The position numbers and the translations under genes were made by a program. The notes below the pieces were generated by a model, which had not been told where the DNA came from, made no database searches, and saw only the letters and a program-made list of their open reading frames with translations. A stretch of 64,000 nt of DNA from Planctomycetota bacterium (GTDB lineage Bacteria > Planctomycetota > JAJSAM01 > JAJVHW01): contig JAJFFG010000051.1 in assembly GCA_021776825.1 (NCBI GenBank), forward strand, positions 17,283 through 81,282, read 5' to 3'. Position 1 is the stretch's first letter; each line of letters starts with the position of its first letter. Positions 6,661 to 50,770 of the stretch are shown piece by piece.

Positions 6661-8004
6661 TCAGCGATCGTCGGCCGGGGGGACCGGCGCATCGTCGTCG
6701 GGAGTCGGCGCAGGCTCGTCGGGAGTCGGCGCAGGCTCGTCGGGAGTCGGCGCAGGCTCGTCGGGGCTCTCGCCAGCAGCATCGTCCCCCCCCTCCGGGG
6801 CGGCATCATCCGGCGCGGCATCATCCGGCGCGGCATCATCCGGCACGGCATCATCCGGCACGGCATCATCCGGCACGGCATCGGCTGGCGCGCCATCGAC
6901 CGGAGCCCGGCGCTTGGCACGGACCTTCTCGAGCCGGTCCTGGATGCGCTCGCCCTCCTCGACCTCACCCAGTTCGAAGAGGAAGCGGCCCAGCGAGCTC
7001 ATGATCGTCTCGTCCTCAGGAGAGAGACGGTGCGCCCGGCGCAGGATCTTGACGGCCTTGTAAGGCTCGCCGCGCTCCTTCTGGATCATGGCCAGGAGGA
7101 ACAGCCCGGCGGGCGCATCGCGACGGACGGCGAGGTAGCCCTCGGCGGCGCGCTCGCACTCGTCGAGGCGCCCCATCCGCAGGAGAACGCGGGCCTTGGC
7201 GACGAGCGTGTCGTCGAACGGGATACGTGTCGCTGACGCCTTCAGGATCGATCGGTCGAACGCATCGAGAGCGTCGTCCAAGCGCCCCATGTCGTTCAGG
7301 ACCTGACCCAGCGTGTGCCAGGCGCGGGCGGCATCGGGGTGCTCCTTGACGACGCCGAGGAGGATCTCCTCGGATCGCTTGCGCTCGTCGCGATGCCGAT
7401 GCGCGTCGGCCAGGTTGATCTTCGCGGCCACCTCGTCGCCGTGACCCGGTACGAGTTCGAGCGCAATCCCGATGTCCTCGATCGCCTCGTCGAACCGCGC
7501 GGCCTCGATCAGCATCCCCGCTCGGTTCACGAGCCCGCGGTAGTACCAGCGCCGCGCCATCTCGACGTCGAGGCCGACGGCCTCGGCGCCTTCGTACGCC
7601 TCCTTGAACATGTCGTGCGCGAGCGCGAAGTCACGATCGACCCACCGCAGCCGGCCGATGGCGAACGCCAGTCGCGCATCGCCCTTGCCGCCGCGCGAGA
7701 CGGCGTGCCGGATCAGATCCTCGGCCACCCGGTAGTGGCGAGACGTCTTGGTCAGGCCACCCGGGCGGGCGACGCCAGACTCGATCGCGAGGATCGCGGC
7801 ATCGGCCAGCTGGCCCATCGCGCTGGCCTTGATGGCAGCGCACGCGAACAGTTCCTCGACGGCCTCATCGACACGACCGGCCGCCAGAAGCTCGTCCGCA
7901 CGTGCTTGATGCCAGGCGAACCACTCGTCGGAGGTCTCCTCTCCCGCGTACGTGGGCGTGGCGAGGGACGCGAGGACGATCAGCAGCAGGGGGGCGATGC
8001 GCAT
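6661..8004 (-). CDS. secreted TPR-repeat protein with C-terminal acidic Pro-rich tandem repeats
   Basis: Signal peptide MRIAPLLLIVLASLATPTYA and multiple TPR-like helical repeats. C-terminus (DDAVP/DDAAP)x6 and (DEPAPTP)x3 is encoded by 15-bp and 21-bp DNA tandem repeats at about 6700-6900. Confidence 0.75.
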   Translation of the reverse strand: MRIAPLLLIVLASLATPTYAGEETSDEWFAWHQARADELLAAGRVDEAVEELFACAAIKASAMGQLADAAILAIESGVARPGGLTKTSRHYRVAEDLIRHAVSRGGKGDARLAFAIGRLRWVDRDFALAHDMFKEAYEGAEAVGLDVEMARRWYYRGLVNRAGMLIEAARFDEAIEDIGIALELVPGHGDEVAAKINLADAHRHRDERKRSEEILLGVVKEHPDAARAWHTLGQVLNDMGRLDDALDAFDRSILKASATRIPFDDTLVAKARVLLRMGRLDECERAAEGYLAVRRDAPAGLFLLAMIQKERGEPYKAVKILRRAHRLSPEDETIMSSLGRFLFELGEVEEGERIQDRLEKVRAKRRAPVDGAPADAVPDDAVPDDAVPDDAAPDDAAPDDAAPEGGDDAAGESPDEPAPTPDEPAPTPDEPAPTPDDDAPVPPADDR

Positions 8005-8030
8005 GGCGGCAGTCTACGGGACACCGCGCA

Positions 8031-9011
8031 TCACGGGATCCACGCCCGGGCGCGATACCACGCGGCCGTCTCGCGCAGTCCGTCATCCAGGGTGCGAGCC
8101 GGTTCCCAGCCTAGGTCCCGCCGGGCTCGGGAGACGTCGCACGCCCAGCCTGACGCCGTGAACTCGACGGCCTTGTCGCGCGAGAACTCGGGCACGCGGC
8201 CTCGAATCCGCGCGATCTCCTCCGCGACGACGCCCACGGCCTGGATGACGCACTCGGGGACGCGCACTGTCACGCCACGTCGACCGACCGCATCGGCGAT
8301 CTTCTCCAGCACGGCGTCGATCGGCAGGCTGCCTGGATTGGCGAGGTAGTACGTGCGCCCGGCGGCCGACGGCGCCTCGAGGGCCTGCCGCAGACCGACG
8401 GCGAGATCCGCGCCGTGCACGATGGAGACCCGACGCGGGCGCGTGCCGATGCGAAGGCGCACGCCGCGCGCCGCCGCTCGAAACAGGTCCAGGATGCCGC
8501 GGTCCCATGGCCCGTAGACCGCCGGCGGACGGATGACGGTGAGCTCGACCTGACCGGGCAGCGCGCGTCGGGCCGCGTGCTCCCCGAGCAGTTTCGTGAG
8601 GCCGTAGCGGCTGACGGGACGGTCGTCGTCCTCCTCCGACACGCCCCGATCGACGCTCGGCCCGCCGGCTGCCAGCGACGAGACCAGGAGGAAGCGTCGC
8701 ACGGTGCCCGCGGCCGCGCAGGCAGCCGCCAGGCGTGCCGCCCCACCCTCGTTCACCGCCCGCATTGCCTCGAACGAGCGTGCCGTGATCAGCCCAGCGA
8801 CGTGAACCACGGCGTCGCAGCCCTGGAGCGCGTCTCGGAGGAGCAACGTCGAGGAGAGGTCTCCCACGACCAACTCGTGACCGGCGGCCGCCAGGTGCTC
8901 GGCGCGAGGCTCCGACCGCACGAGGCAGCGCAGATCGTGCCCCGCCCGCGCCAGCTCGTCGGCGGCGTGGCGGCCGACGAACCCCGTCGCTCCGGTGAGC
9001 AGCACCTTCAT
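8031..9011 (-). CDS. NAD-dependent epimerase/dehydratase (extended SDR); candidate CerR-like ceramide reductase
   Basis: Rossmann motif MKVLLTGATGFVGRH at the likely start, and a YxxxK-type catalytic region. Divergently adjacent to an Spt-like gene. Confidence 0.75.
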   Translation of the reverse strand: MKVLLTGATGFVGRHAADELARAGHDLRCLVRSEPRAEHLAAAGHELVVGDLSSTLLLRDALQGCDAVVHVAGLITARSFEAMRAVNEGGAARLAAACAAAGTVRRFLLVSSLAAGGPSVDRGVSEEDDDRPVSRYGLTKLLGEHAARRALPGQVELTVIRPPAVYGPWDRGILDLFRAAARGVRLRIGTRPRRVSIVHGADLAVGLRQALEAPSAAGRTYYLANPGSLPIDAVLEKIADAVGRRGVTVRVPECVIQAVGVVAEEIARIRGRVPEFSRDKAVEFTASGWACDVSRARRDLGWEPARTLDDGLRETAAWYRARAWIP

Positions 9012-9262
9012 CGAGCCTCGCGACCTCCTGGACATGTGACCCTGCGCGCACGGGCATTCGAACGTCTAACGCCGCCCCGTCCAAGGCCTGCAGTCAGGCG
9101 GCTTCCTCAACGCCGCACGAGCCTCCAAACACATTGACACGCAATCGCGACGCTCCCTACCCTCCGTCCGCGCCTGACCTTGCGTGCGTCGCAGTGACGC
9201 ACCGCCGCCGCGAAGACCGCTTCGGCCACCGTCGCAACGGGCGCACAGCGAGAGACCGCCCG

Positions 9263-10452
9263 TGGATCTGTTCGAGAAGTGCAACCGTTTCGATCGCGCG
9301 AACGCGCTGAAGCGGCAGGACCTCTATCCGTACTTCCTCGAGATCTCCGAGAACCACGCGGAGGAGGTCGTCTGCGAAGGCCGGTCGATGATCATGATCG
9401 GCTCGAACAACTACCTCGGGCTGACGCATCATCCGCGTGTCAAAGAGGCCGCTGTCGAGGCCGTCCGACGCTACGGATCGGGATGCACGGGCTCGCGCTT
9501 CCTCAACGGGACGCTGGACCTCCACAACGAGCTCGAGCGGCGACTGGCGCGTTTCGCCCGCAAGGAAGCGGCGCTGACCTTCTCGACGGGGTTCCAGGTG
9601 AACCTGGGCGTGATCTCCACGCTGGCCGGCAAGAACGACGTGATCCTCTGCGACCGCGAGAACCACGCGTCGATCTTCGACGGTTGCCGGCAGTCGTACG
9701 CGACGCTGCGCAAGTACCGCCACAGCGACATGGAGGACCTCGAGCGCCAGCTCGCGATGGTCCCCGAGCACGCGGGCCGCATGATCGTCACCGACGGTGT
9801 CTTCTCGATGAAGGGCGACCTCTGCGACCTGCCGAGCATCGTGCGACTCGCGCGCAAGTACGGCGCGCGGATCGTGCTCGACGATGCCCACGGCATCGGC
9901 GCTCTGGGTGTGGGCGGCCGCGGCACGGCGGAGCACTTCGGGCTCGAGGACGACGTCGACCTCGTCGTCGGGACGTTCTCGAAGTCGCTCGCGTCGCTCG
10001 GCGGCTTCGTCGCCGGCCAGGCGAACGTGATCGACTACGTGAAGCACACCGCCCGGGCGTTGATGTTCTCGGCGTCGCCGGCGCCGGCCTCCGCTGCCGC
10101 CACGCTGGCCGCGCTCGACATCGTCGAGAACGAGCCAGAGCGTCGCGCACGCCTCTGGTCGAACGTGCGTCGGATGTGCAAGGCGTTCCTCGAACTCGGC
10201 TACGACGTCGGAATGAGCAAGTCGCCCATCATCCCGATCCCGGTCGGGGGAGACGTCGAGACCTTCCGCTTCTGGCGACAGCTCCACGAAGAGGGGATCT
10301 TCACGAACCCCGTGGTGTCGCCCGCGGTGGCGGCCGGCGAGGGGCTTCTGCGCACGTCGTACATGGCGACGCACACGATCGAGGAGCTCGACCGCGTCAT
10401 CGAGGTGTTTGCGCGCCTCGGGCGAGCGGCCGGGCTCCTGCACGTCGCGTAG
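9263..10452 (+). CDS. alpha-oxoamine synthase, serine palmitoyltransferase (Spt)-like PLP enzyme
   Basis: Motifs GSNNYLGL and DDAHG. The PLP-lysine motif VGTFSKSLASLGGFV is the Spt form (GTFSKS, versus GTLGKA in KBL or GTLSKA in BioF). C-terminal RERLWSN-like region. Probable GTG start at 9263 (VDLFEKCNRF); the ORF track's maximal start is 9184. Confidence 0.85.
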
Positions 10453-10455
10453 GCG

Positions 10456-11592
10456 ATGCACCCCGAGCTCGCCGCGATCCCGATCGGCCGCGGCCGGGCC
10501 GAGCGCGCGCGCTTCTGGCGCTCCGGACTCCCGCCGTACGAGGGCGACCGGCACCACGTGGTCCCGCTGCTCATGGACTGCCACGCACGGTGGCACCCGG
10601 AGCACCCGTTCTTCCGGCACGCCGAGACGCAGCACTTCGTCCTCACCGGACCAGGCCGCCACGATGGGCGCATTGCCGCGACCGTGGACCGTGCCAACGA
10701 CGCGCTGGGCGAGGCGCATGTCGGACTGTTCGGCTGGTTCGAGTGCACGCAGAGTCCGAAGCGCGCCGAGTGCTTACTCGACGCCGCTGCGGCCTGGCTC
10801 CGCGAGCGCGGCTGCACGCGGATGCGCGGGCCCGTCTCGTACACGACCAATGGCCTGAGCGGGCTGCTCGTCGAGGACAACCACCCGGGCCCGCCGACGC
10901 TCGACATGCCCTACAACCCGCCGTGGTACGCGGAGCTCCTGGAGGGCTGGGGGCTCGAGAAGGCCCAGGACCTGGTCTCCCTGCGCCTCGACGTCGGTGC
11001 TGCGCCCGACCCGCGCCACGTACGGGTCACGGATCGCGCGCTGGCGCGAGGCGGGTTCTCGATCCGGCACGTCCGCGCCGATACTGCTGGGTTCGCCGCC
11101 GACGTCGAGCACGTCCTGCGCATCTACAACGGAGCCTGGGAGCAGAACTGGGGCTTCGTGCCGCTCACCGCGGGCGAGATCCGACACGAGGCGAAGACGC
11201 TGAAGAGTGTGCTCGTCCCGGAGCTGATGCTCTTCGTCGAGAAGGACGGAGAGCCAGTGGCGTTCTCGCTCACGCTCCCCGACCTCAATCAGGCTCTGCG
11301 CACGATTCGCGGACGCCTCTGGCCGTGGTCCGTGGTGCGGTTCCTGCGAGCGCGGAAGCAGATTGACCACGTCCGCGTCATCACCCTCGGCGTCCTGCCG
11401 GAGTTCCGGCGCAACGGGCTCGACATGGCGCTCATCGTTCGAACCCACCTGGCGGCGTATCCGCGCGGGGTCCGGAGCGCCGAGTGCGGTTGGGTCCTGG
11501 ACGACAACGACGCCATGATCTCGGCCATCCGACGGGTCGGCGGAGAGATCAGCCGAACCTATCGGGTGTACGAGCGCGACCTGTCACATTGA
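10456..11592 (+). CDS. GNAT-fold N-acyltransferase-like protein (candidate bacterial ceramide synthase)
   Basis: 378 aa. Only a 3-nt gap after the Spt-like gene, same strand. C-terminal acyl-CoA N-acyltransferase-like region (VITLGVLPEFRRNGLDMALI). Family assignment is from motif resemblance only. Confidence 0.45.
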   Translation: MHPELAAIPIGRGRAERARFWRSGLPPYEGDRHHVVPLLMDCHARWHPEHPFFRHAETQHFVLTGPGRHDGRIAATVDRANDALGEAHVGLFGWFECTQSPKRAECLLDAAAAWLRERGCTRMRGPVSYTTNGLSGLLVEDNHPGPPTLDMPYNPPWYAELLEGWGLEKAQDLVSLRLDVGAAPDPRHVRVTDRALARGGFSIRHVRADTAGFAADVEHVLRIYNGAWEQNWGFVPLTAGEIRHEAKTLKSVLVPELMLFVEKDGEPVAFSLTLPDLNQALRTIRGRLWPWSVVRFLRARKQIDHVRVITLGVLPEFRRNGLDMALIVRTHLAAYPRGVRSAECGWVLDDNDAMISAIRRVGGEISRTYRVYERDLSH

Positions 11593-11764
11593 CAGCCAAC
11601 GAGCCGAATCAAGTAGCCCCGCGCAGGGGGTCCGGCTAACCTGCGCCCCGCCCGAGGGCGTTCGGATTCGGACGCGGCACCGGGGCGCCACCCGACGTCC
11701 TGCGTGCGTGATCGCACATCTGGCGTCAGGCCGCTCCATCCGCTTCGACGCGTGAACGAGCGCC

Positions 11765-13591
11765 ATGCAGGAACGCTCGGGAGAACGACGGTTCACGCAC
11801 ACGGAAGGACCAGGCGTGGCGACCAGATCCAAGGCAGCGAAGTCGAAGGCAGCGAAGACGGGGCCTTCGAAGGCCGCGCGAGCGGCTCCAGCCCGCAAGA
11901 CGTCGACGAAGCCCACCGCCAAGAAGGCCCCATCCAAGAAGGCCACGTCGAAGAAGGCCCCATCCAAGAAGGCCCCATCCAAGAAGGCCACGTCGAAGAA
12001 GCCCGTGGCGAAGAAGTCCGCCGCCAAGCGGGCGACGCGCAACGCCCCGGCGAAGAAGGCCCCCGCGAAGAAGGCCCCCGCGCGAACGACCTCAGCGCGG
12101 AAGCCGACCGCGAAGAAGGCCCCGGCGAAGAAGATCACGGCGAAGAAGTCCACCGCCAGGAAGACGCCGGCTAAGAAGGCTCCGGCCAAGAAGGCCGCGT
12201 CGAAGCGCCCGGCTGCCAAGAAGCCCACCGCCCGCAAGGCTCCCGCACGGACGTCCACGACGAAGCGCTCGGCCACCAAGAAGCCGACGAAGTCGTCCGC
12301 GCGGAAGCCAGCGAAGAAGACCGCCAAGAAGCCCGCGGAGCGCACCGCGTCGACCAAGCCGGCCACGAAGTCGACGACGCGCCGCACGACATCGAAGAAG
12401 GCGCCCGTCAAGAAGACCACCGCGAAGAAGGCGGCGACCCGGAAGGCGCCCGCTAAGAAGGCGACCATCAAGAAGTCGCCGGCCAAGAAGGCGCCCACGA
12501 AGAAGGGCTCTGCGAAGAAGCCCGCCGCCAAGAAGTCCACAGGTAGGAAGACGGCGACGAAGCCGGCTGCAAAGACCACCGTGGCAACGAAGAAGACAGC
12601 GGCCAAGAAGGCCGCACCCAAGACGAAGAGGAGCACCCAGTTGGCCGATAGCCAGACCGGGTCCTCGGCGGAAACCGCCGGGGACCTCAGTACGAAGAAG
12701 TCCAAGTCCGCCTCGTCCGTCGCGACCGCGACGAAGACGGCGGGCGCGCGCCCGAAGCGCAAGCGTGAGCGCAAGCCGAAGCCGCCCGCGAAGACCATGA
12801 ACGCGCCCGAGCCGGTGCGCGACATCCTCCTGTCGATGGACATGCCCGACGTGCGCCGGGCGCGGACGGCGAACCAGCGTCGCCAGGCCTCCCGCGGCCA
12901 CCTCAAGCCGGCCCACACGGATGACCTCGCACAGGACGACATCACGGCGCCGCGTGAGCCGCTCGACGCGACGCTCATCATGAACACGCTGGCCGTCGAC
13001 GTGCAGCCGCGCATCGAGGATCACTACGACTACACGGTGCTCGAGGAGTTCAGCGAGTCCGACGAGTGCCCGCGCTCGACCCGCATGGTCAACACTGGCT
13101 GCGGTGGTGGCGAGGCAGCCGTCTTCTTCGCGAAGCGTGGGTTCCACTGCGTCGGGATCGATCCCGATCGCGGCGACGTCGGCCTCGCCCGCGAGCGTGC
13201 GTGGCTGGCCGGAGTGGACATCGACTTCATGGTCGGTGACCTCTTCGAGACCCCCAACCTCCTCCCCGGTGGTTCGTTCGGGCTCGCTGTGGATCGCGGC
13301 GCGTTCCACCGCATCGAGGAGCCGCGCGAACGTCAGCGCTACCTGGCGAACATTCGTCGGCTTCTCTCTGAGGGCGGCGTGCTGCTCCTCAGCGCCGGGT
13401 ACTTCCCGGTACGCTCCGAGAAGGGTCAGAGTCGCTCACGCCGCACCGGCGAGACGATCCTGCTCGCCGAGGAGGGTGGAGTCGTCGTCGGCGAGATGCG
13501 CACGGCGGGCTTCGCGTTGCTCCACCGCGTGCTGAGGCAGACGGCGGACTCGGGCGAGTTCGGCGAGCTGGTCCTCTACCTGCGGAAGTAG
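11765..13591 (+). CDS. fusion protein: histone H1-like Lys/Ala/Pro-rich repeat domain (about 300 aa) plus C-terminal class I SAM-dependent methyltransferase
   Basis: N-terminal (A/P/T)KK(A/P) repeats (AKKAPAKK, SKKAPSKK and similar). C-terminal Rossmann MTase motif I VNTGCGGGEAAVFFAKRGFHCVGIDPD and post-I acidic motif DFMVGDLF. Confidence 0.7.
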   Translation: MQERSGERRFTHTEGPGVATRSKAAKSKAAKTGPSKAARAAPARKTSTKPTAKKAPSKKATSKKAPSKKAPSKKATSKKPVAKKSAAKRATRNAPAKKAPAKKAPARTTSARKPTAKKAPAKKITAKKSTARKTPAKKAPAKKAASKRPAAKKPTARKAPARTSTTKRSATKKPTKSSARKPAKKTAKKPAERTASTKPATKSTTRRTTSKKAPVKKTTAKKAATRKAPAKKATIKKSPAKKAPTKKGSAKKPAAKKSTGRKTATKPAAKTTVATKKTAAKKAAPKTKRSTQLADSQTGSSAETAGDLSTKKSKSASSVATATKTAGARPKRKRERKPKPPAKTMNAPEPVRDILLSMDMPDVRRARTANQRRQASRGHLKPAHTDDLAQDDITAPREPLDATLIMNTLAVDVQPRIEDHYDYTVLEEFSESDECPRSTRMVNTGCGGGEAAVFFAKRGFHCVGIDPDRGDVGLARERAWLAGVDIDFMVGDLFETPNLLPGGSFGLAVDRGAFHRIEEPRERQRYLANIRRLLSEGGVLLLSAGYFPVRSEKGQSRSRRTGETILLAEEGGVVVGEMRTAGFALLHRVLRQTADSGEFGELVLYLRK

Positions 13592-13713
13592 GCATCGGCG
13601 TCGCGGGGCGTCTCGGAGACCGGCTGGAGTTACGGCTCGGGCTGGCCTTCTGGTGCGTCACCGCGACGACTGCATCCCTGACCGGCGCCGGGGCGGCGTT
13701 CCTGCCGTACGCG

Positions 13714-14484
13714 GTGCCGGTGGTGGTGCTCATCCTGCTCTGGCCGCGGCTACGCACGCTGCGGCTCGCGCCCGCGGTGCTTGACTGGCTGCCGCTCCCG
13801 TTCGTCGTCCTGACGTACGAGATGCTGCACGCTGTCGTGCCACGGTGCTGGAGCGCGACCATCGATCCATGGCTGCGCCAGGCCGACCGCGCGTTGCTCG
13901 GCGCGGACGCCGCCTCGTTGCTCGAGCCGTGGGTCGACGCGGGTCTGACGACCGCGCTCTCCACGGCCTACGCGAGCTACTACGTCCTGCCGGTCGGTCT
14001 CGCGATCTGGTGCTGGCGACGGAACCGCGTCGCGTTTCGATGCCTCATCGTGGGCGAGGTGGGCGCACTCTTCATCGGGTACCTCGGGTATCTCTTCCTC
14101 CCCGCCATCGGCCCGCACCTGTTCTTCGAGCCGGGCACGTTCGCCGCCGCGCTCGACGGCGACTTCATCGGGGAGCTCATTCGCTCGCTGAACGGCGCGC
14201 ACGACGGGCGCTATCCACGGGACGCCTTCCCGAGCCTGCACACGGCGAACGCCGTGACCGCCGTGATCGTCGCCTGGCGACACGAGCGCCGAGCGCTCGC
14301 CGTCGTCGCCCCGCTCGCCGCGGGAATCATCGCCGCGACGGTGTACCTGCGATTCCACTACGTCATCGACGTCGCGGCCGGAGCCGCGCTCGCCGTGGCC
14401 TGGCAGGCCTGGGTGCCACGGCTGGTCGCGAGCGAGACTCACGCGACGTCCACTGTCCCTTCGCCGGAGCGCAGCACGACATGA
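13714..14484 (+). CDS. PAP2-family (type 2 phosphatidic acid phosphatase / sphingolipid phosphotransferase-like) membrane protein
   Basis: PAP2 motifs: PSLH (PSGH-like) in DAFPSLHTANAV and the SRxxxxxHxxxD-like YLRFHYVIDVAAG. Multiple TM segments. The N-terminus may extend upstream, since the frame is open from 13594. Confidence 0.7.
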   Translation: MPVVVLILLWPRLRTLRLAPAVLDWLPLPFVVLTYEMLHAVVPRCWSATIDPWLRQADRALLGADAASLLEPWVDAGLTTALSTAYASYYVLPVGLAIWCWRRNRVAFRCLIVGEVGALFIGYLGYLFLPAIGPHLFFEPGTFAAALDGDFIGELIRSLNGAHDGRYPRDAFPSLHTANAVTAVIVAWRHERRALAVVAPLAAGIIAATVYLRFHYVIDVAAGAALAVAWQAWVPRLVASETHATSTVPSPERSTT

Positions 14485-15656
14485 ACCCCGCGTCGACCTC
14501 TCCCGCCCTCGCCGGTGCACTGGTGCCGCTCCAGCGCCGTGACGCGGGGAGTGGTGCGAAGATCGGAGCGGCGATCCTCGTCCGGCTCGACCACGCTCAG
14601 GCGTACGCACCGCGGGCGGTGACGGCCGTGGCGGCAGCTGCGGCTGACGGAGTCGAGCGGCTCTCGGCCTACGGAGCCGGATGGGCCGCGGATGTCGCCG
14701 CCGTCGCTGCTGCGCGCGACATCCCGTGCACTGCGGTGATCGAGGAGGACGCGCCGACGACGTACGTGACGCTCCTCGCCGCACTGGGCGCGGAGATCCA
14801 GCGTGGGCCCGGCGACGTGCCGGGGAGCACGCTCGTCGATCCCGCAGAGGGGCTGGACCCGCCCGCCGAGGACGTCGAAGGAGATGTCCTCGTCGGCTAC
14901 GGCCGCGCGCCGGAAGGGGCCGCCACGCGCCGTGTGGGGGTGACGGTCTCGGGCACCTCATCGAGCGGCCTGTTCCCGGCATCGCGGATGGACGCCGCGG
15001 ACGAGCTCATCAGCGTCGACGCGCGCGAAGCGATCGCTGCGGCGCGCGCGGTGGCGCGCGACGATGGCCTGCTGGTCGGACCGGCCTCGGGTGCCGTTCT
15101 CGCGGTGGCTCGGCGCCTCGCGGGCGAGATCGCCGACGACATGCGCGTCATCGCCGTCCTCCCGGACGGTGGCGCCGCCGCGCTGGCGACGATCCACGAC
15201 GAGGCCTGGCTGCGTCGACACGGGCTGCTCGCCGACACTCCGGCCCTGACCGCCGCCGACCTTCTCTCGCGCAAGGGCGGCGGGCCCCAGGACATGGTGA
15301 TGCTCGCACCCGACGCGAGCGTCGATCATGCGATCCGGATCATGCAGGACCTCGAGGTCTCGCAGATCCCGATCGTCGATGAGGGCGAGGTCGTGGGCAC
15401 GATCCGCGAGGATCAGGTCATCGACCTCCTCCTGCACACGCCGGAGCGCAAGGACGGCCCGGTGGCGGACGTCATGGACGATCCGCTCCGCGAGATCACG
15501 CCCGACGCGGATATCGAAGACATCCAAGCGATGATCGTGGCCGGCGGCTCCGCCCTGATCGTGCGGTGGCCCGACGGCCGACGAGAGATCCTCACGAAGT
15601 ACGACCTGATCCACGGACTCGCGCGCGAGTCCGGCGACCGAGACGAGGAACGATGA
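14481..15656 (+). CDS. cystathionine-beta-synthase-like protein (fold-type II PLP domain plus tandem CBS domains), probably catalytically degenerate
   Basis: ATG at 14481 overlaps the PAP2 stop (ATGA). The C-terminal half carries two CBS-domain-like segments. The N-terminal CysK/CBS-like fold lacks the conserved SVKDR lysine (replaced by AQAYAPRA). The upstream part of ORF 13845..15656 is rejected. Confidence 0.6.
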   Translation: MNPASTSPALAGALVPLQRRDAGSGAKIGAAILVRLDHAQAYAPRAVTAVAAAAADGVERLSAYGAGWAADVAAVAAARDIPCTAVIEEDAPTTYVTLLAALGAEIQRGPGDVPGSTLVDPAEGLDPPAEDVEGDVLVGYGRAPEGAATRRVGVTVSGTSSSGLFPASRMDAADELISVDAREAIAAARAVARDDGLLVGPASGAVLAVARRLAGEIADDMRVIAVLPDGGAAALATIHDEAWLRRHGLLADTPALTAADLLSRKGGGPQDMVMLAPDASVDHAIRIMQDLEVSQIPIVDEGEVVGTIREDQVIDLLLHTPERKDGPVADVMDDPLREITPDADIEDIQAMIVAGGSALIVRWPDGRREILTKYDLIHGLARESGDRDEER

Positions 15657-16813
15657 GCGACCACGACGACCAGGGGTTCGGAACGCGCTGCATCCACGGC
15701 GGACAGAAGCCGTGCGAGGCAACCGGGGCGATCATGCCGCCCGTCTACATGACCAGCACGTACGTGCAGAGCTCGCCCGGCGTCAACCAGGGCTACGACT
15801 ACTCGCGCACGATCAACCCGACGCGCCGCGCGCTGGAGCGCAACCTGGCGTCGCTCGAGGGTGGTCGGCACGGGCTCGCCTACTCGAGCGGGATGGCCGC
15901 TGCCGACTGCGCGGTGCACCTGCTCTCGCAGGGCGATCACATCGTCGCGTGCAACGACCTGTACGGCGGCAGCTACCGTCTGCTGCGCGCCGTGTACGAG
16001 CAGCTCGGGATCGAGTCGACGTTCGTCGACACAACCGACGAAGCCGCGTTCCGCGAGGCCTTCCGCCCGACGACGCGCATGGTCTGGATCGAGACGCCGA
16101 GCAACCCCCTGCTGCGGATCACCGACATCGAGCTCTGCACGTCCATCGCGCGCGCGAGCGGCGCGCTCTCGGTCGTCGACAACACGTTCGCGACGCCGTA
16201 CCTGCAGCAGCCGCTGGGACTCGGCGCGGACATCGTCCTGCACAGCACCACCAAGTACATGGGCGGCCACTCCGACGTCGTCGGGGGCGCGCTCGTGGTG
16301 AACGACGATGCGCTCCACGAGCGGCTCCGCTTCCTGCAGAACTCCGTCGGCGCGGTGCCCGGACCGATGGACTGCTTCCTCACGTTGCGCGGCGCGAAGA
16401 CGTTGCACCTGCGCATGCAGCGTCACGCCGAGAACGCCTCGCAGATCGCTGCCTGGCTAGAGGCGCACGAGGCCGTCGACACGGTCATGTACCCGGGCCT
16501 GCCGTCGCACGCGCAGCACGCGCTCGCGATGCGGCAGATGAAGAATGGCGGCGGGATGGTGAGCTTCGAAGTGCGCGGCGGGCTCGACGCGAGTCGCATC
16601 GTCGCGGAGCGCGTGCGCCTGTTCGCCCTGGCCGAGAGTCTGGGCGGCGTCGAGTCGTTGCTCGACCACCCGGCGATCATGACGCACGCCTCGATCCCGG
16701 TGGCCGAGCGTCACGCAGCGGGTCTCACCGACGGACTACTGCGTCTCTCGGTCGGGGTCGAGGACGTCGCCGATCTGATCGGAGACCTCACGCAGGCTCT
16801 CGCGGAGATCTGA
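15652..16813 (+). CDS. cystathionine gamma-lyase / gamma-synthase family (Cys/Met metabolism PLP-dependent enzyme)
   Basis: ATG at 15652 overlaps the previous stop. PLP-lysine motif HSTTKYMGGHSDVVGG. Family-typical N-terminus GTRCIHGG. Confidence 0.85.
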
Positions 16814-16903: not shown

Positions 16904-18160
16904 ATGCGCAACACGTTGAGGTTCACTGCGTTCGTCGCGGGTCTGCTACTCGTCTCCGCCTGCTCGGGCGGCTCGTCGGAACGAGGTGCCGCCCCGGATG
17001 GGAGCGGGATGCCGAGCGCGACCGAGGTCGCGCAGCTCGACGAACACCGCTCGCTCGGCGAGCCCGTGTCGATCGACAACCTGACCGTCTGGCCCGTGCA
17101 CACGGACGCCCCGCTCGAGATCGGCGAGTTCCTGACGCTCCAGGAGGCGCAGGCCGACGGCGTCGCGGCAGTTCGCGAGGTCGGCGGCAGCGCTCCGGGC
17201 GAGGCGCCGAACGGATCGAGCTCGAATCGCAGCGGCCGTCAGGTCGACAACCATCTCGCGAACGGCTCCGCGACGGTCAACACGCTCGTGGTCGAGAACT
17301 CCGGCGACAAGCCGATCCTGATCTGCGCCGGCACGATCGTGAAGGGCGGCAACCAGGATCGCCAGATCGGGCAGGACCTCGTCATCGCTGCCGGGAAGAC
17401 GGTCCCCGTCGGCGCGTTCTGCGTCGAGCAGGGCCGCTGGACGAACGTCCGCGAGGGCGTGGCGAACGACGGGACGTTCGCGGCCATGAACGTCGTGGCC
17501 CCGATGAAAGTGCGCACGAACGCCCAGTACGAGAAGGACCAGGGCAAGGTGTGGGAAGAGGTCGCGGCGGCACGCGTCGTCGCGTACCGGATGAGTGGCG
17601 GGGGCGGTGAGAGCACTGCGGCGCGCCGCTTGGCCTTCGAGTTCGAGGCCGACCCTCAGGCCGACGACATCCAGGTCCAAACCGCCAGTTTCGGCGGCGG
17701 CACGAGCTTCGTCGACGCCCTTGAGAAGGCGGACGGCTCCGTGCAGAAGGCGCGATCCCAGCGGACCGACGCGATCCGCGCGCACTTCGCCGAGCTAGCG
17801 GGCGACGACGCCCCCATCGGCTTCGCGTACGCCATCAACGGCAAGCCCGTCACCGTGCGCGTGTTCGCGCACCACCGTCTGCTCGAGCAGAACCTCGACC
17901 CGTTCCTGAACGCCATGGCGCTCGAGGCCGAGGCCGCGGAGGAGCAGGAGTTCACGCCCTGCACGGCGCACGACGTGGTGACGATGGTCAACGAGATCAA
18001 CGTGGCTGCCGAGCAGCGCGAGGAGACGAAGGCCGCCAACTGGAACGGACTCCGTCAGAACGACCGCGGCTTCAACGGGAACTGCTACTTCGGGGACGGA
18101 GACGCTGAGGACGCGGAGTTCCTCTACATCCCGGTGACCCAGGACTGGACGTCTCGGTAA
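16904..18160 (+). CDS. hypothetical lipoprotein
   Basis: Lipoprotein signal with lipobox (MRNTLRFTAFVAGLLLVSAC). Coding-like composition, no recognisable domain. Confidence 0.55.
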   Translation: MRNTLRFTAFVAGLLLVSACSGGSSERGAAPDGSGMPSATEVAQLDEHRSLGEPVSIDNLTVWPVHTDAPLEIGEFLTLQEAQADGVAAVREVGGSAPGEAPNGSSSNRSGRQVDNHLANGSATVNTLVVENSGDKPILICAGTIVKGGNQDRQIGQDLVIAAGKTVPVGAFCVEQGRWTNVREGVANDGTFAAMNVVAPMKVRTNAQYEKDQGKVWEEVAAARVVAYRMSGGGGESTAARRLAFEFEADPQADDIQVQTASFGGGTSFVDALEKADGSVQKARSQRTDAIRAHFAELAGDDAPIGFAYAINGKPVTVRVFAHHRLLEQNLDPFLNAMALEAEAAEEQEFTPCTAHDVVTMVNEINVAAEQREETKAANWNGLRQNDRGFNGNCYFGDGDAEDAEFLYIPVTQDWTSR

Positions 18161-18164
18161 GTTC

Positions 18165-18339
18165 GATCCGTCGTCGGCGCGGGTGGGTCACCCCGCACAC
18201 AGTCGCGTGGCCCGTCGGTCGCAGCCTTGCGTGGCCTCAATCCACGCGTCACCGACGGCGCCTGCGCGAAGCGCAACCTCCGCGCCCCGGGTTCGGATTC
18301 GGGTGGGTGTCGTCTCCTCCAATCCAACGCGATCGCTAC
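18165..18339. repeat. truncated copy of composite repeat (unit tail plus GC stem-loop connector)
   Basis: Contains cggtcgcagccttgcgtggcctca and gcgcaacctccgcgccccgggt, shared with the loci at 21313, 43323 and 55036. Confidence 0.6.
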
Positions 18340-18630
18340 GTCAACGGCGGCGTAGGGGCGGACCCCCTGGTCCGCCCCGCCCGCTGGGGTTGCTCGCGCC
18401 ATGCGGGTCCGATGGCGCACTGCGAACGACCGGCGCGACGCGGACGGCCATCGGACGACGGCGCCGAACCCGATGGACTTCCCTGTGCGTCGGCGTCATC
18501 GGGTCGCGACGGGGATCGCCCGTGACGGACCGATCCACCCCCCCAGCGGTCGCTCGCTGACCGCCATCCACCCGCCTCATCCGGGCGACGCGTGTCGGCG
18601 GGGCGGACCGGGGGGTCCGCCCCTACGGGC
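18340..18630. repeat. MITE-like element copy A (about 290 bp) with about 22-bp terminal inverted repeats containing nested palindromes
   Basis: 5' end GTCAACGGCGGCGTAGGGGCGGACCccctGGTCCGCCCC. 3' end GGGGCGGACCggggGGTCCGCCCCTACGGGCGG. The ends are inverted with respect to each other, and each holds its own palindrome. Confidence 0.7.
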
Positions 18631-18687
18631 GGTCCCGGAAGTTCCCGACGCCGTCCGGGCGGCATACCCGATCGAACGGTGTCGCAA

Positions 18688-18880
18688 CTCAACGGTCCCG
18701 TACGGGCGGATCTCCTGATCCGCCCGCGCCCGCTGGGGTCGCTCGCTCTGGGCGGGTCCGACGGCGCTCGGCGGACGACTCGCGTGATGCGGACAGCCGT
18801 CGGTCGATCTGATGGCGGCTCGACGTCGGGGCTCGATCCCTCGATGACGCCGTCGGCGCCCCCGCCTACCCCTCGTCGGG
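18688..18880. repeat. MITE-like element copy B (partial, 5' TIR of the GATCTCCTGATC variant)
   Basis: Starts CTCAACGGTCCCGTACGGGCGGATCTCCTGATCCGCCCGCGCCCGCTGGGG. Core is homologous to copy A (gcccgctgggg...gggtccgacggcgc...gatgcggacagccgtcgg). Confidence 0.6.
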
Positions 18881-50569: not shown

Positions 50570-50770
50570 GACTGGGGGTTCCTCGCGGTCTCTTCGAGGT
50601 CGCTCGATCCCTCCCGTCGCGGGAGGGCCGGACAGTCTAGTTTCCCTGGTGGCGGTTGTCGCGGACTCCGACGCGCCCGGACGTCGCCCGCGTGCCCGGG
50701 AACCCTTGCCGGAGCGTGCCGCAAGCGACACACTCGGAGCCGGTGCGTCAGTTGCGCGCCTCCACCGCCA

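Follow-up and report, generated by a model that had tools for sequence, protein, structure and literature searches.

A methyltransferase with a polycationic N-terminal tail in a conserved sphingolipid-type gene cluster of Planctomycetota

Closest described systems

To our knowledge, the synthesis of sphingolipids in bacteria has only recently been worked out, and the enzymes that modify these lipids are largely unknown. The genes for Spt, bCerS and CerR frequently form a cluster, and many metagenome-assembled genomes (MAGs) of Planctomycetota carry Spt-like genes (PMC11334938). The cluster of Caulobacter crescentus holds the same triad of enzyme types, matched by class, as the locus described here (PMC11087976, PMC11334938), whereas the planctomycete clusters add a methyltransferase, which is found in three clades, and those of the tailed clade also contain PAP2_3, CBS-like and cystathionine-lyase genes. 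In the literature consulted here, the characterized Spt/bCerS/CerR clusters are not described as including a methyltransferase. A planctomycete lipid head-group methyltransferase encoded in the operon of its own lipid is known from Singulisphaera acidiphila, where OlsG N-methylates ornithine lipids (PMC12493201); the likeness would be one of function and context. OlsG serves another lipid class and has no reported polybasic tail.

A disordered extension on a lipid methyltransferase has been described for the S-type PmtA of Agrobacterium tumefaciens (PDB 9KO3/9KO5), a soluble enzyme whose N-terminal appendage is needed for membrane binding and activity, and which resembles our enzyme in having a class I SAM core of about 200 residues and, under the role proposed below, in modifying lipids where the membrane meets the cytoplasm (PMC12139422). 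However, PmtA has an amphipathic helix of about 20 residues, whereas the tailed methyltransferases have a polycationic tail of 24–340 residues and a basic loop, with no amphipathic helix detected; PmtA belongs to PC synthesis and not to a sphingolipid-type gene context, and the profile of the tailed family did not reach it in the PDB at E <= 0.01.

Low-complexity Lys/Ala/Pro repeats like those of the tail are present in Chlamydia Hc2, Pseudomonas AlgP and PhaF/PhaM. PhaF and PhaM use their H1-like tails to anchor PHA granules at the nucleoid, and AlgP is associated with granules of polyphosphate (PMC9239181, PMC11894788, PMC12818456). In PhaF/PhaM, such a tail is joined to a module for a hydrophobic storage polymer; here it is placed N-terminal to a methyltransferase. 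The ligands of these proteins are DNA, RNA or polyphosphate, and they lack such an enzyme domain; the likeness of the methyltransferase tail to them, although it exceeds the HC2 threshold, appears to be compositional only. The methyltransferase core itself is nearest, among solved structures and sequences, to 6mro/8gdu of Methanosarcina acetivorans (CpaM-like; profile search E 2e-25 and 5e-23, Foldseek E ~2e-13, target TM-scores 0.75–0.79) and to thiol/halide methyltransferases, which differ from it in their low identity (22–23%), in having no tail, junction motif or basic loop, and in their unrelated gene contexts.

Gene neighbourhood and family distribution

The window, i.e., the whole 64-kb stretch of DNA that was analysed, contains the following genes and elements around the methyltransferase:

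8031..9035, minus strand: NAD-dependent epimerase/dehydratase-family SDR, divergent from the Spt gene (Pfam Epimerase and related, NCBIfam HpnA-like)
9184-10452, plus strand: Spt-like alpha-oxoamine synthase (best NCBIfam model SerpalmtaseCFB)
10456-11592, plus strand: GNAT-superfamily N-acyltransferase of 378 aa, directly downstream of Spt (weak Acetyltransf_1 match)
11589..11616, plus strand: conserved 28-nt element TTGACAGCCAACGAGCCGAATCAAGTAG, overlapping the GNAT stop, ~150-225 nt before the start codon of the methyltransferase
11765..13591, plus strand: tailed methyltransferase ORF of 608 aa, comprising tail, junction and class I methyltransferase (ORF list, Pfam matches)
13594..14484, plus strand: PAP2_3 (Aur1/SMS-like) integral membrane protein, called start GTG 13714
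14481..15656, plus strand: divergent PALP + CBS-domain protein (CBS-like), its ATG overlapping the PAP2 stop (ATGA)
15653..16813, plus strand: cystathionine gamma-lyase/synthase family enzyme, its ATG overlapping the CBS-like stop (ATGA; Cys_Met_Meta_PP 505 bits)

The Spt-like protein scored best against the serine palmitoyltransferase model NF047600 (544.8 bits, below the cut-off of 640), and the BioF, KBL and HemA models gave 245–413. Judged by enzyme class and gene position, the GNAT protein is a candidate bCerS-like enzyme and the SDR a candidate CerR-like reductase. The position of the SDR is kept in 15 loci, and enzyme classes of the bCerS/CerR type adjoin Spt in at least 15 loci as well as in a deltaproteobacterial MAG, in which the GNAT gene also directly follows Spt; more than 5400 homologues of the GNAT protein were found, annotated as GNAT N-acetyltransferases of Planctomycetes, Myxococcales and Deltaproteobacteria. 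The PAP2_3 protein matched PF14378 at 76.4 bits (GA 27), and its motifs PSLH and (RF)HYVIDV, read from the sequence and corresponding to the catalytic His...His-Tyr-x-x-Asp pair, lie in or beside acidic loops opposite Arg-rich loops; the predicted location of the catalytic motifs is on the non-cytoplasmic side. PDB sequence searches with the PAP2 and GNAT proteins gave spurious or very weak matches only. The cystathionine-lyase gene product matched NCBIfam PRK07811 at 541 bits.

The Spt and GNAT genes and the PAP2 family assignment agree with a previous sequence-only reading of this DNA, but the PAP2_3 gene, which that reading began at 13714, probably starts near 13594: a conserved N-terminal transmembrane segment is encoded upstream of the called start, from 2 nt after the methyltransferase stop, its peptide (RLELRLGLAFW...) is kept in seven orthologues, and orthologous PAP2 genes begin 5–12 nt after the methyltransferase stop. 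The exact TTGACAGCCAACGAGCCGAATCAAGTAG pattern is also present in three related loci (L008, L010 and L020), chance alone would give zero occurrences in the window, and the element is a candidate promoter or operator. A sigma-70 promoter scan found no promoter, terminator-like matches occurred only at the level expected by chance, and no Rfam family, including the SAM and SAH riboswitches, matched within 8900-14600.

The gene order around the methyltransferase is conserved. Among the 17 loci analysed first, all from independent Planctomycetota assemblies, 16 have the order SDR(-) / Spt - GNAT - methyltransferase, the exception (1/17) being a locus disrupted by IS elements, and two further contigs likewise show GNAT - methyltransferase - PAP2. 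This order spans three methyltransferase clades (58–74%, 43–50% and ~35% identity), which makes the sphingolipid-type context considerably firmer than could be known from the window. In tailed relatives, PAP2_3 is always immediately downstream, followed by the CBS-like and cystathionine-lyase genes; tail-less relatives have a strongly basic internal loop in the core and keep the methyltransferase also where no PAP2 gene is adjacent. The family is rare, with 11 representatives among 1.84 billion proteins, in line with the earlier suggestion that the combination is an uncharacterized protein type; its members all come from uncultured MAGs, and the same search found none outside the Spt/GNAT context. 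Because this rare family always lies within a sphingolipid-type cluster, it probably represents an uncharacterized lipid-modifying enzyme with an unusual electrostatic anchor.

Translation, composition and turnover of the tail

The ORF lies on the plus strand with the extent and length given in the sequence-only reading. Its start codon is ambiguous, being either ATG 11765 (608 aa) or GTG 11816 (591 aa), the latter with GGAAGGA 6 nt 5' of it. The part preceding the methyltransferase core consists of two features:

11816..12796, plus strand: Lys/Ala/Thr/Ser/Pro-rich disordered tail with a net charge of ~+107, encoded by degenerate 15/45-bp repeats with KKAPA-type pentapeptides
12797..13006, plus strand: conserved junction, residues 345-414, with an invariant Met after KPKPPAKT, then P-x-P, LPDVRRA, RG and P-V-DA-x-LI

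The fusion of tail and methyltransferase is a genuine single gene, as at least 11 independent Planctomycetota assemblies share the identical architecture, in frame and with a coding signature. The concern that a frameshift or an assembly artefact had joined two separate genes is thereby removed. The fusion hence recurs among orthologues, but the tail is not always fused, since tail-less relatives exist. The tail is translated, because the GC content by codon position, the synonymous changes under conserved residues and the dN/dS of a strain pair (0.30) all bear the marks of a coding sequence. At the window locus, GC3 of the tail is 0.89 in the methyltransferase frame; across eight loci it is 0.76–0.91 (0.83–0.91 in seven of them), in phase with the methyltransferase along the entire tail, and this frame is the sole one without stops in all eight. 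In the codon alignment, the residues KPKPPAKT before the junction Met are kept via synonymous codon changes.

These observations leave it highly improbable that the tail stays untranslated, always or sometimes, with the true start at the internal ATG 12797 (the Met of KTM) and an open frame arising from T-poor DNA, or with long and short isoforms. The conserved Met is the first in-frame ATG in five loci (L002, L006, L008, L009 and L011), several database gene calls (262–263 aa) begin there, and T-poor DNA leaves the other frames nearly stop-free. Against this stand the phased GC3, the synonymous changes under KPKPPAKT, the strain-pair dN/dS together with an indel of 3 nt, and the many orthologues that have an ATG at the head of the tail. 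A short isoform may be made besides the long one.

Residues 1–339 of the protein, which form the tail, contain 26% K, 8% R, 23% A, 15% T, 10% S, 9% P and 3% D+E. The H1-like Lys/Ala/Pro character that had been proposed for this region was evident from this composition and from the match to HC2 (PF07382), which reached 59.6 bits with the full protein and 67.6 bits with the tail alone (Pfam GA 40); NCBIfam H1-like models matched below their cut-offs (48.3 vs 80; 31.1 vs 135). The resemblance to HC2 and H1-like proteins is compositional, as far as can be judged from the alignments: orthologous tails share their composition, while their sequence cannot be aligned and turns over even between strains. 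In the tail DNA, Tandem Repeats Finder detected repeat units of 15 bp (5 aa) and 45 bp (15 aa) at 66–78% match, not the 24–30 bp assumed previously. No other K-rich tail was found in ~310 kb (the 64-kb window plus 247 kb of related loci), and within the window this tail is the only long K-rich tract; the tail is therefore gene-specific and not a lineage-wide or proteome-wide habit, and it is far beyond chance in a genome of 69% GC. A metagenome scan returned no relative of more than 72% identity to the window.

The variability in repeat length that had been anticipated is supported by tails of 24 to ~340 residues between species and, in the strain pair L010/L020, by one codon (3-nt) indel plus many substitutions. 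In this pair, dN/dS is 0.30 in the tail and 0.04 in the core, and both dS and dN of the tail are ~4- to 25-fold above those of the core. Selection on the tail is purifying but relaxed, with charge and composition preserved. One could argue that such a sequence has no specific ligand and serves as a disordered spacer that evolves rapidly (an entropic bristle, a regulatory/degradation handle, or a tag that keeps an enzyme of hydrophobic substrates soluble) and was produced by tolerated replication slippage of the 15-bp repeats, given the range of tail lengths, the high strain-level rates with an indel, the degenerate repeats and an adjoining junction without modelled structure. We consider this distinctly unlikely: although their sequences have turned over completely, all orthologues retain a net positive charge of 0.12–0.38 per residue and have hardly any acidic residues, a dN/dS of 0.30 still indicates constraint, and a basic character is also conserved in the internal loop of the core and in the extensions of clade B, which are rich in Arg.

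An alternative explanation is that the enzyme is a methyltransferase of the lipid pathway whose tail binds another polyanion, such as chromosomal DNA, RNA/ribosomes or polyphosphate, by which the enzyme would be positioned or sequestered. Its HC2 score above the Pfam threshold, the matches to histone-H1-like models, and the Lys and Ala content with KKAPA pentads resemble nucleic-acid and polyphosphate binders (PMC9239181, PMC11894788, PMC12818456), and in length and charge the tail equals several full H1 C-terminal domains. However, some orthologous tails have only 10–13% K, with 20% P and ~30% A, S/T-P-K-K motifs are absent from the tail, and all conserved neighbours are lipid or membrane enzymes; together with this lipid context, the basic loop that tail-less relatives have in the catalytic domain itself fits an interfacial enzyme better. 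We therefore regard binding to another polyanion as unlikely, albeit a serious contender.

The region between tail and core had been described as an acidic linker, which it is not: it is a conserved junction of 70 residues (M-x-x-P-x-P...LPDVRRA...RG...P-V-DA-x-LI in the clade-A conservation line) with both basic and acidic patches. The junction is probably flexible, because the confidence of the structural model is low there (pLDDT 50–65), and no amphipathic helix was found in it, as none of its 18-residue windows has a hydrophobic moment above 0.45.

Methyltransferase core and proposed role at the membrane

The C-terminal part of the protein contains two features:

13007..13588, plus strand: class I SAM-dependent methyltransferase core, residues 415-608 (Methyltransf_11/25, AF2, Foldseek)
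13406..13468, plus strand: variable basic loop within the core, residues ~548-568 (alignment over three clades; low pLDDT, model residues 217-222)

An HMM search confirmed the SAM-dependent methyltransferase that had been recognized from its motifs, with Methyltransf_11/Methyltransf_25 matching residues 444–541 at E ~1e-12 to 1e-13 (PF08241 49.1–50.7 bits vs GA 21.2; PF13649 48.8–50.8 bits vs GA 27). Motif I (VNTGCGGGE, residues 442–450) and GIDPD (464–468) are invariant or nearly so in 59 family members, and the motif DFMVGDLF is present. The AF2 model of the core has a pLDDT >90 and alternating strands and helices, as expected of the seven-stranded alpha/beta fold, and Foldseek assigned probability 1.0 to many class I and small-molecule methyltransferases. 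The best matches of the PDB profile search were 8gdu and 6mro, and the enzymes closest to the core in structure act on small molecules (6mro/8gdu, NovO/CouO, RebM, UbiG and thiol/halide methyltransferases); the model thus shows the fold to be that of a small-molecule class I methyltransferase. The match to TPMT (PF05724) lay around the threshold (GA 26; full protein 25.4 bits, C-terminal part 28.6) and was surpassed by those to the generic methyltransferase families. Phospholipid N-methyltransferases, including the solved PmtA structures, were not among the 58 PDB sequences that the family profile matched at E <= 0.01, nor were Pmt models among the NCBIfam matches of the protein. A DNA methyltransferase or restriction-modification enzyme was rejected, as no such Pfam or NCBIfam family matched, and an exported protein was ruled out because the first 420 residues contain neither a signal peptide nor a hydrophobic segment.

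RNA-binding proteins often have polybasic tails, and the enzyme might be an RNA or protein methyltransferase (e.g., an rRNA enzyme of the Bud23 type that carries a Lys-rich extension) to which the lipid genes are mere neighbours. The class I fold is generic, and the Foldseek matches include a human pre-40S ribosomal-subunit chain and PrmA with similar scores (ranks 20, 22 and 35). Nevertheless, this is very unlikely in view of a gene order that persists in three clades at identities as low as 35%, the neighbours lying on the same strand and being coupled or separated by short gaps, of the confinement of the family to the lipid-gene context, and of the small-molecule methyltransferases that are its nearest sequences and structures.

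In all three clades, a loop of variable sequence and positive charge occupies one and the same position in the core. Its charge is +3 in the methyltransferase of the window and mostly +5 to +9 in the tail-less relatives (clade C; range +3 to +9), while clade B has Arg-rich extensions. The loop is most basic in proteins without a tail and least basic (+3) with a long tail, suggesting, from the alignment, that loop and tail serve one shared electrostatic function.

Our preferred reading, which we hold tentatively, is that the protein is a cytoplasmic lipid methyltransferase of a sphingolipid-type pathway that works at the membrane surface, held on the anionic membrane by its polybasic elements. 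The type of enzyme is supported by the lack of a match to DNA-methyltransferase families and by the small-molecule enzymes among its nearest structures. The proposed pathway would comprise Spt-like condensation, GNAT/bCerS-like N-acylation and CerR-like reduction, to which the tailed clade would add the Aur1/SMS-like PAP2_3 head-group transferase, with the methyltransferase as an accessory enzyme. We infer that the enzyme has a lipid substrate, that its tail binds the membrane and that its activity is linked to homocysteine. On the cytoplasmic face, the globular core would transfer the methyl group to a polar moiety of an intermediate lipid, and the candidate substrates are the long-chain base, the N-acyl-3-keto intermediate, or an amine head group carried by a donor lipid or a product lipid. 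Methylation of the PAP2 product by this enzyme has become less likely, since relatives without an adjacent PAP2 gene keep the methyltransferase and the PAP2 motifs are predicted to be non-cytoplasmic, whereas the methyltransferase has no export signal. Having no hydrophobic anchor, the enzyme would be held at the anionic membrane, with access to its lipid substrate, by disordered polybasic elements, namely the basic internal loop in every clade and, in the tailed clade, the expanded N-terminal Lys/Ala/Pro tail of up to ~340 residues and a charge of +107. The coupled downstream CBS-like and cystathionine-lyase genes may serve to dispose of homocysteine from high-flux methylation. In animals, PEMT drives homocysteine production and provides an analogue of such high-flux lipid methylation.

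Several points count against this preferred reading. About 340 residues with a charge of +107 are far beyond what membrane tethering needs, no amphipathic helix was found in the junction, and Lys/Ala/Pro tails are chiefly known for binding DNA, RNA or polyphosphate. In addition, the Spt-like score lies below the NCBIfam cut-off, the core has no specific family, the profile does not reach PmtA at E <= 0.01, and all members come from uncultured MAGs. A wider proposal, which we regard as doubtful, is that this uncultured Planctomycetota lineage makes methylated sphingolipids by means of a dedicated methyltransferase, whose new membrane or polyanion tether expanded from a basic loop or extension, and that the coupling to reverse-transsulfuration genes marks high-flux methylation of membrane lipids. 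The product could then be an N-methylated phosphoethanolamine- or choline-type, sphingomyelin-like lipid, or a methylated long-chain base or ceramide.

Recent metagenomics has pointed to Planctomycetota as a phylum rich in potential producers of sphingolipids. The methyltransferase family is a conserved fourth gene of their Spt, bCerS-like and CerR-like cluster; it predicts a methylated sphingolipid of a kind not known to have been described from these organisms and provides a defined gene set to express. The tail is an extreme example of a natural polycationic disordered region on a metabolic enzyme, and the family offers an evolutionary series, from tail-less proteins with a very basic loop via a short Arg-rich extension to Lys/Ala/Pro tails of up to 340 residues, that could reveal the origin of electrostatic targeting modules and the length of sequence they require. 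If the tail instead binds DNA or polyphosphate, lipid synthesis would be linked to the organization of the nucleoid or of granules.

The tailed methyltransferase and its reading frame

The window (GC ~69%) carries an ORF in which a polycationic tail leads through a junction (residues 345-414) into a methyltransferase core, in the following setting:

8031-9035 (-): SDR, a candidate CerR-like ceramide-synthesis reductase
9184-10452: Spt-like protein (Spt, serine palmitoyltransferase)
10456-11592: GNAT protein
11765-13591 (+): tailed methyltransferase ORF, 608 residues
to 14484 (+): PAP2_3 protein
14481-15656 (+): PALP and CBS-domain (CBS-like) protein, overlapping PAP2_3 as ATGA
15653-16813 (+): cystathionine gamma-lyase/synthase-family enzyme, with an ATGA overlap with the CBS-like gene

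The tail (first ~340 residues) is 26% Lys, 23% Ala, 15% Thr, 10% Ser, 9% Pro and 8% Arg, with just 3% acidic residues and a net charge of +107. Coding-strand AT skew over the tract reaches up to +0.75. When the 64-kb window and 247 kb of related loci were scanned for K-rich tracts, nothing else like it turned up. Tandem Repeats Finder resolved the tail DNA into degenerate repeats with a period of 15 or 45 bp (66-78% match), instead of the 24-30 bp proposed by the sequence-only reading, and the repeat units are pentapeptides such as KKAPA, SKKAP and AKKST. The start codon is ambiguous (ATG 11765 or GTG 11816), the GTG being preceded by GGAAGGA at a Shine-Dalgarno-like distance. The HC2 model (PF07382) scored 59.6 bits on the full protein and 67.6 on the tail alone (GA 40); the likeness of the tail to HC2, AlgP and H1 is one of composition only. 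DNA-methyltransferase families gave no match in the Pfam and NCBIfam scans. We regard it as rather unlikely that the tail tethers DNA, RNA or polyphosphate in the manner of PhaF, PhaM or AlgP.

With residues 345-608 as query among 5.8 billion protein clusters, we found 74 relatives, ~47 of which share 58-74% identity over the whole 264 residues and bear N-terminal K/A/P-rich extensions of very different lengths. When frames were extended in the fetched loci, the tails of the closest relatives (L008-L011, L020 and L021 (= P0196)) measured 215-340 residues and occupied the entire gap back to the upstream gene. Because several frames are open in this T-poor DNA, the coding signal was tested directly. 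The methyltransferase frame was the only one without stops in all eight loci examined from the clade of the window protein (clade A), and tail GC3 in phase with it was 0.76-0.91 (0.83-0.91 in seven of the eight), with core GC3 at 0.88-0.98. The sequence K-P-K-P-P-A-K-T, just 5' of an invariant internal Met, was kept despite synonymous codon changes.

Substitution counts in a strain-level pair of loci (L010 6338-7792 versus L020 526-1983)
Core: 1 nonsynonymous and 8 synonymous differences; dN/dS 0.04; dS 0.042
Tail: 26.5 nonsynonymous and 27.5 synonymous differences; dN/dS 0.30; dS 0.186; one 3-nt indel (1 codon)

The substitutions and the indel were concentrated mid-tail, while the last ~60 tail residues and the junction were identical. 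GC3 phase, the stop-free frame, synonymous conservation and the strain-pair counts together indicate that the tail is translated, and a tail left untranslated, or translated only sometimes, is scarcely credible; a second, shorter product may also start at the internal ATG 12797. The fusion is a genuine gene: at least 11 independent Planctomycetota assemblies share its architecture, in frame and with a coding signature, which excludes the frameshift or assembly artefact that the sequence-only reading had named as its refutation. Constraint on the tail acts mainly on charge and composition, and the tract is a mutational hot spot; we consider a disordered spacer without a ligand improbable.

The protein is a bona fide class I methyltransferase. 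Pfam Methyltransf_11/25 matched residues 444-541, with TPMT borderline, and an AlphaFold2 model of residues 345-608 built on a 59-sequence alignment had a mean pLDDT of 81 (>90 in the core, residues ~416-608; 50-65 in the 70-residue junction; <50 in one internal loop). Foldseek against the PDB returned class I methyltransferases only, the top matches being small-molecule enzymes (6mro/8gdu, NovO/CouO, RebM/AtmM, UbiG and halide/thiol methyltransferases). A PDB-sequence profile search likewise put small-molecule methyltransferases nearest, and the solved PmtA structures were not among its matches at E <= 0.01. We consider it very improbable that the enzyme is an unrelated RNA or protein methyltransferase. 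The junction, previously described as an acidic linker, is not simply acidic: motifs conserved clade-wide (M-x-x-P-x-P, LPDVRRA, RG and P-V-DA-x-LI) surround an acidic patch that varies. The junction contains no strongly amphipathic helix.

Gene neighbourhood in three clades

Neighbourhoods, compared by tblastn, came from exact-protein look-ups, from scanning 185,579 species genomes, which yielded 11 loci, each in a Planctomycetota MAG, and from a metagenome scan. The order SDR (-) / Spt-like - 378-aa GNAT - methyltransferase was found in 16 of the 17 first-analysed loci and is common to the three methyltransferase clades; two further contigs (L020 and L021) likewise had GNAT - methyltransferase - PAP2. 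L001 (re-fetched as L011) is the exception, with IS transposases on its flanks. Its IS elements (DDE_Tnp_1 and IS66 families; 7902-9284, 14513-15880 and 17338-18720) flank and interrupt the cluster, the methyltransferase-PAP2-CBS-lyase genes are split from Spt and GNAT, and there is an inositol-1-phosphate synthase gene upstream.

Methyltransferase clades, with identity to the window protein
Clade A: 58-74%; K/A/P tail and junction motif; PAP2_3 directly downstream in 11 of 11 distinct loci, followed by the PALP-CBS protein and then the cystathionine-lyase-family enzyme in every locus reaching there
Clade B: 43-50%; extended by 60-140 residues rich in Arg, Ser, Ala and Pro; PAP2 not adjacent; L014 and L015 have the CBS-like and lyase genes
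Clade C: ~35%; 198-201 aa, no extension; neither adjacent PAP2 nor CBS-like/lyase genes downstream

The Spt-like protein scored best with the NCBIfam serine palmitoyltransferase model (545 bits against a cut-off of 640; next model 413). The GNAT has >5400 family members, which in Planctomycetes, Myxococcales and Deltaproteobacteria go by the annotation GNAT N-acetyltransferase. Genes for Spt, bCerS (the bacterial ceramide-synthesis acyltransferase) and CerR are reportedly often clustered, and 138 Planctomycetota MAGs with Spt-like genes have been reported from the Black Sea (PMC11334938). The gene content argues strongly that the locus is a sphingolipid cluster. In a deltaproteobacterial MAG (L019 3293-7167) the GNAT again follows Spt, and a PAP2_3 32% identical to that of the window is divergent from Spt-GNAT; outside Planctomycetota, too, PAP2_3 may recur in bacterial sphingolipid clusters.

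The window PAP2_3 gene probably extends 5' of its called start (GTG 13714). Its conserved N-terminal transmembrane segment begins 2 nt past the methyltransferase stop, the transmembrane-like peptide RLELRLGLAFWCVTATTASLTGAGAAFLPYA, in frame at 13594-13713 (+), is conserved in 7 orthologues, and orthologues start with ATG, GTG or TTG 5-12 nt past that stop. The extended window N-terminus has no canonical start codon (candidates only ATC or CTG); initiation may be non-canonical or coupled, or the window may contain a sequence error. ATGA overlaps at both following joins (PAP2 to CBS-like, CBS-like to lyase) tightly couple translation of these genes to that of PAP2_3, and in clades A and B the pair stays with the methyltransferase. 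The CBS-like protein has diverged, scoring only for the C-terminal part of PALP (~60 profile positions) and the CBS domain, with 98 bits for TIGR01137 against a cut-off of 510, so canonical CBS activity appears doubtful. In the closest subclade, the conserved 28-nt element TTGNCAGCCNNNGNGCNNAATNAAGTAG (window 11589-11616 (+), L008 6070-6097, L010 6202-6229, L020 390-417) overlaps the GNAT stop codon and lies ~150-225 nt 5' of where the tailed methyltransferase begins. It includes a TTGACA-like hexamer, its chance expectation in the window is none, and it may be a promoter or operator of a methyltransferase-PAP2 sub-operon.

Other genes of the window were also recorded. A TPR protein (6661-8004 (-)), a conserved neighbour in clade-A loci, adjoins the SDR gene; it begins with a signal-peptide-like segment and ends in a strongly acidic tail of Asp/Pro/Ala repeats (DAVPD and DEPAPTP), which is of low complexity and sits beside a cluster whose methyltransferase tail is basic. 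Downstream of the lyase lies an ARPP-1 domain protein (PF20208, 165 bits; window 16904-18160 (+), L001 15966-17231). A 927-aa predicted membrane protein (47948-50731 (-)) starts with a zinc-ribbon-like CxxC...CxxC, followed by a basic repeat region rich in Gln, Lys, Ala and Pro (QPGKKAI x3), a single transmembrane segment, a large domain predicted to be extracytoplasmic, and an acidic poly-Asp C-terminus.

Basic loop, membrane association and substrate

A positively charged loop of variable sequence lies between the last core strands in every clade (residues ~548-568 in the window protein); an outgroup methyltransferase lacks it. In tail-less clade C it spans 14-23 residues with a charge of mostly +5 to +9 (range +3 to +9); clade B loops carry +5 to +7 and clade A loops mostly +3. 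Because the clades form a graded series, from loop only, through loop plus Arg-rich extension, to loop plus long Lys/Ala/Pro tail, we infer one electrostatic function progressively shifted to, and amplified in, the N-terminus.

The methyltransferase should be cytoplasmic, since it has no hydrophobic segment or signal peptide (maximum 17-residue hydropathy 0.66 in the first 420 residues). PAP2 enzymes generally have their active site away from the cytoplasm. In the window PAP2_3, short Arg-rich loops (WPRLRTLR, WCWRRNR, WRHERR) alternate with longer acidic loops carrying PSLH and RFHYVIDV, and the positive-inside rule together with the PAP2 generality predicts the same placement. Direct methylation of the PAP2 product is less likely because of this placement and because the methyltransferase persists in clades B and C, where no PAP2 adjoins it. 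A substrate accessible from the cytoplasmic side is more plausible; candidates would be a long-chain base or N-acyl-3-keto intermediate, or an amine-containing donor lipid later transferred by PAP2_3.

We tentatively favour, at a little short of an even chance, an interfacial lipid methyltransferase whose polybasic loop and tail would keep it at the anionic membrane. The CBS-like and cystathionine-lyase genes might then dispose of homocysteine from heavy SAM use. In Caulobacter, bCerS is a peripheral membrane enzyme working on the cytoplasmic side (PMC11087976), and PmtA, a soluble lipid methyltransferase of ~200 residues, depends on an N-terminal appendage that binds the membrane (PMC12139422). 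The likeness to PmtA, proposed by analogy, lies in the outline of working, whereas the window methyltransferase lacks two features tested as marks of PmtA membership. For a lipid methyltransferase gene within a planctomycete lipid operon, as proposed here, OlsG is a precedent (PMC12493201).

Rarity of the family

When 1.84 billion representative proteins were searched exhaustively with HMMER, only 11 representatives reached E <= 1e-30, and below them scores fell sharply to generic methyltransferases (~75 bits or less). The junction was covered in 5 of the 11, three of them with tails of 221-294 residues, and all family members come from uncultured Planctomycetota. No characterised protein joining a polycationic tail to a class I methyltransferase was found. 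As judged from sequence, a polycationic tail as putative targeting module on a probable lipid-pathway class I methyltransferase appears unprecedented, and the enzyme would mark an undescribed methylated sphingolipid pathway.
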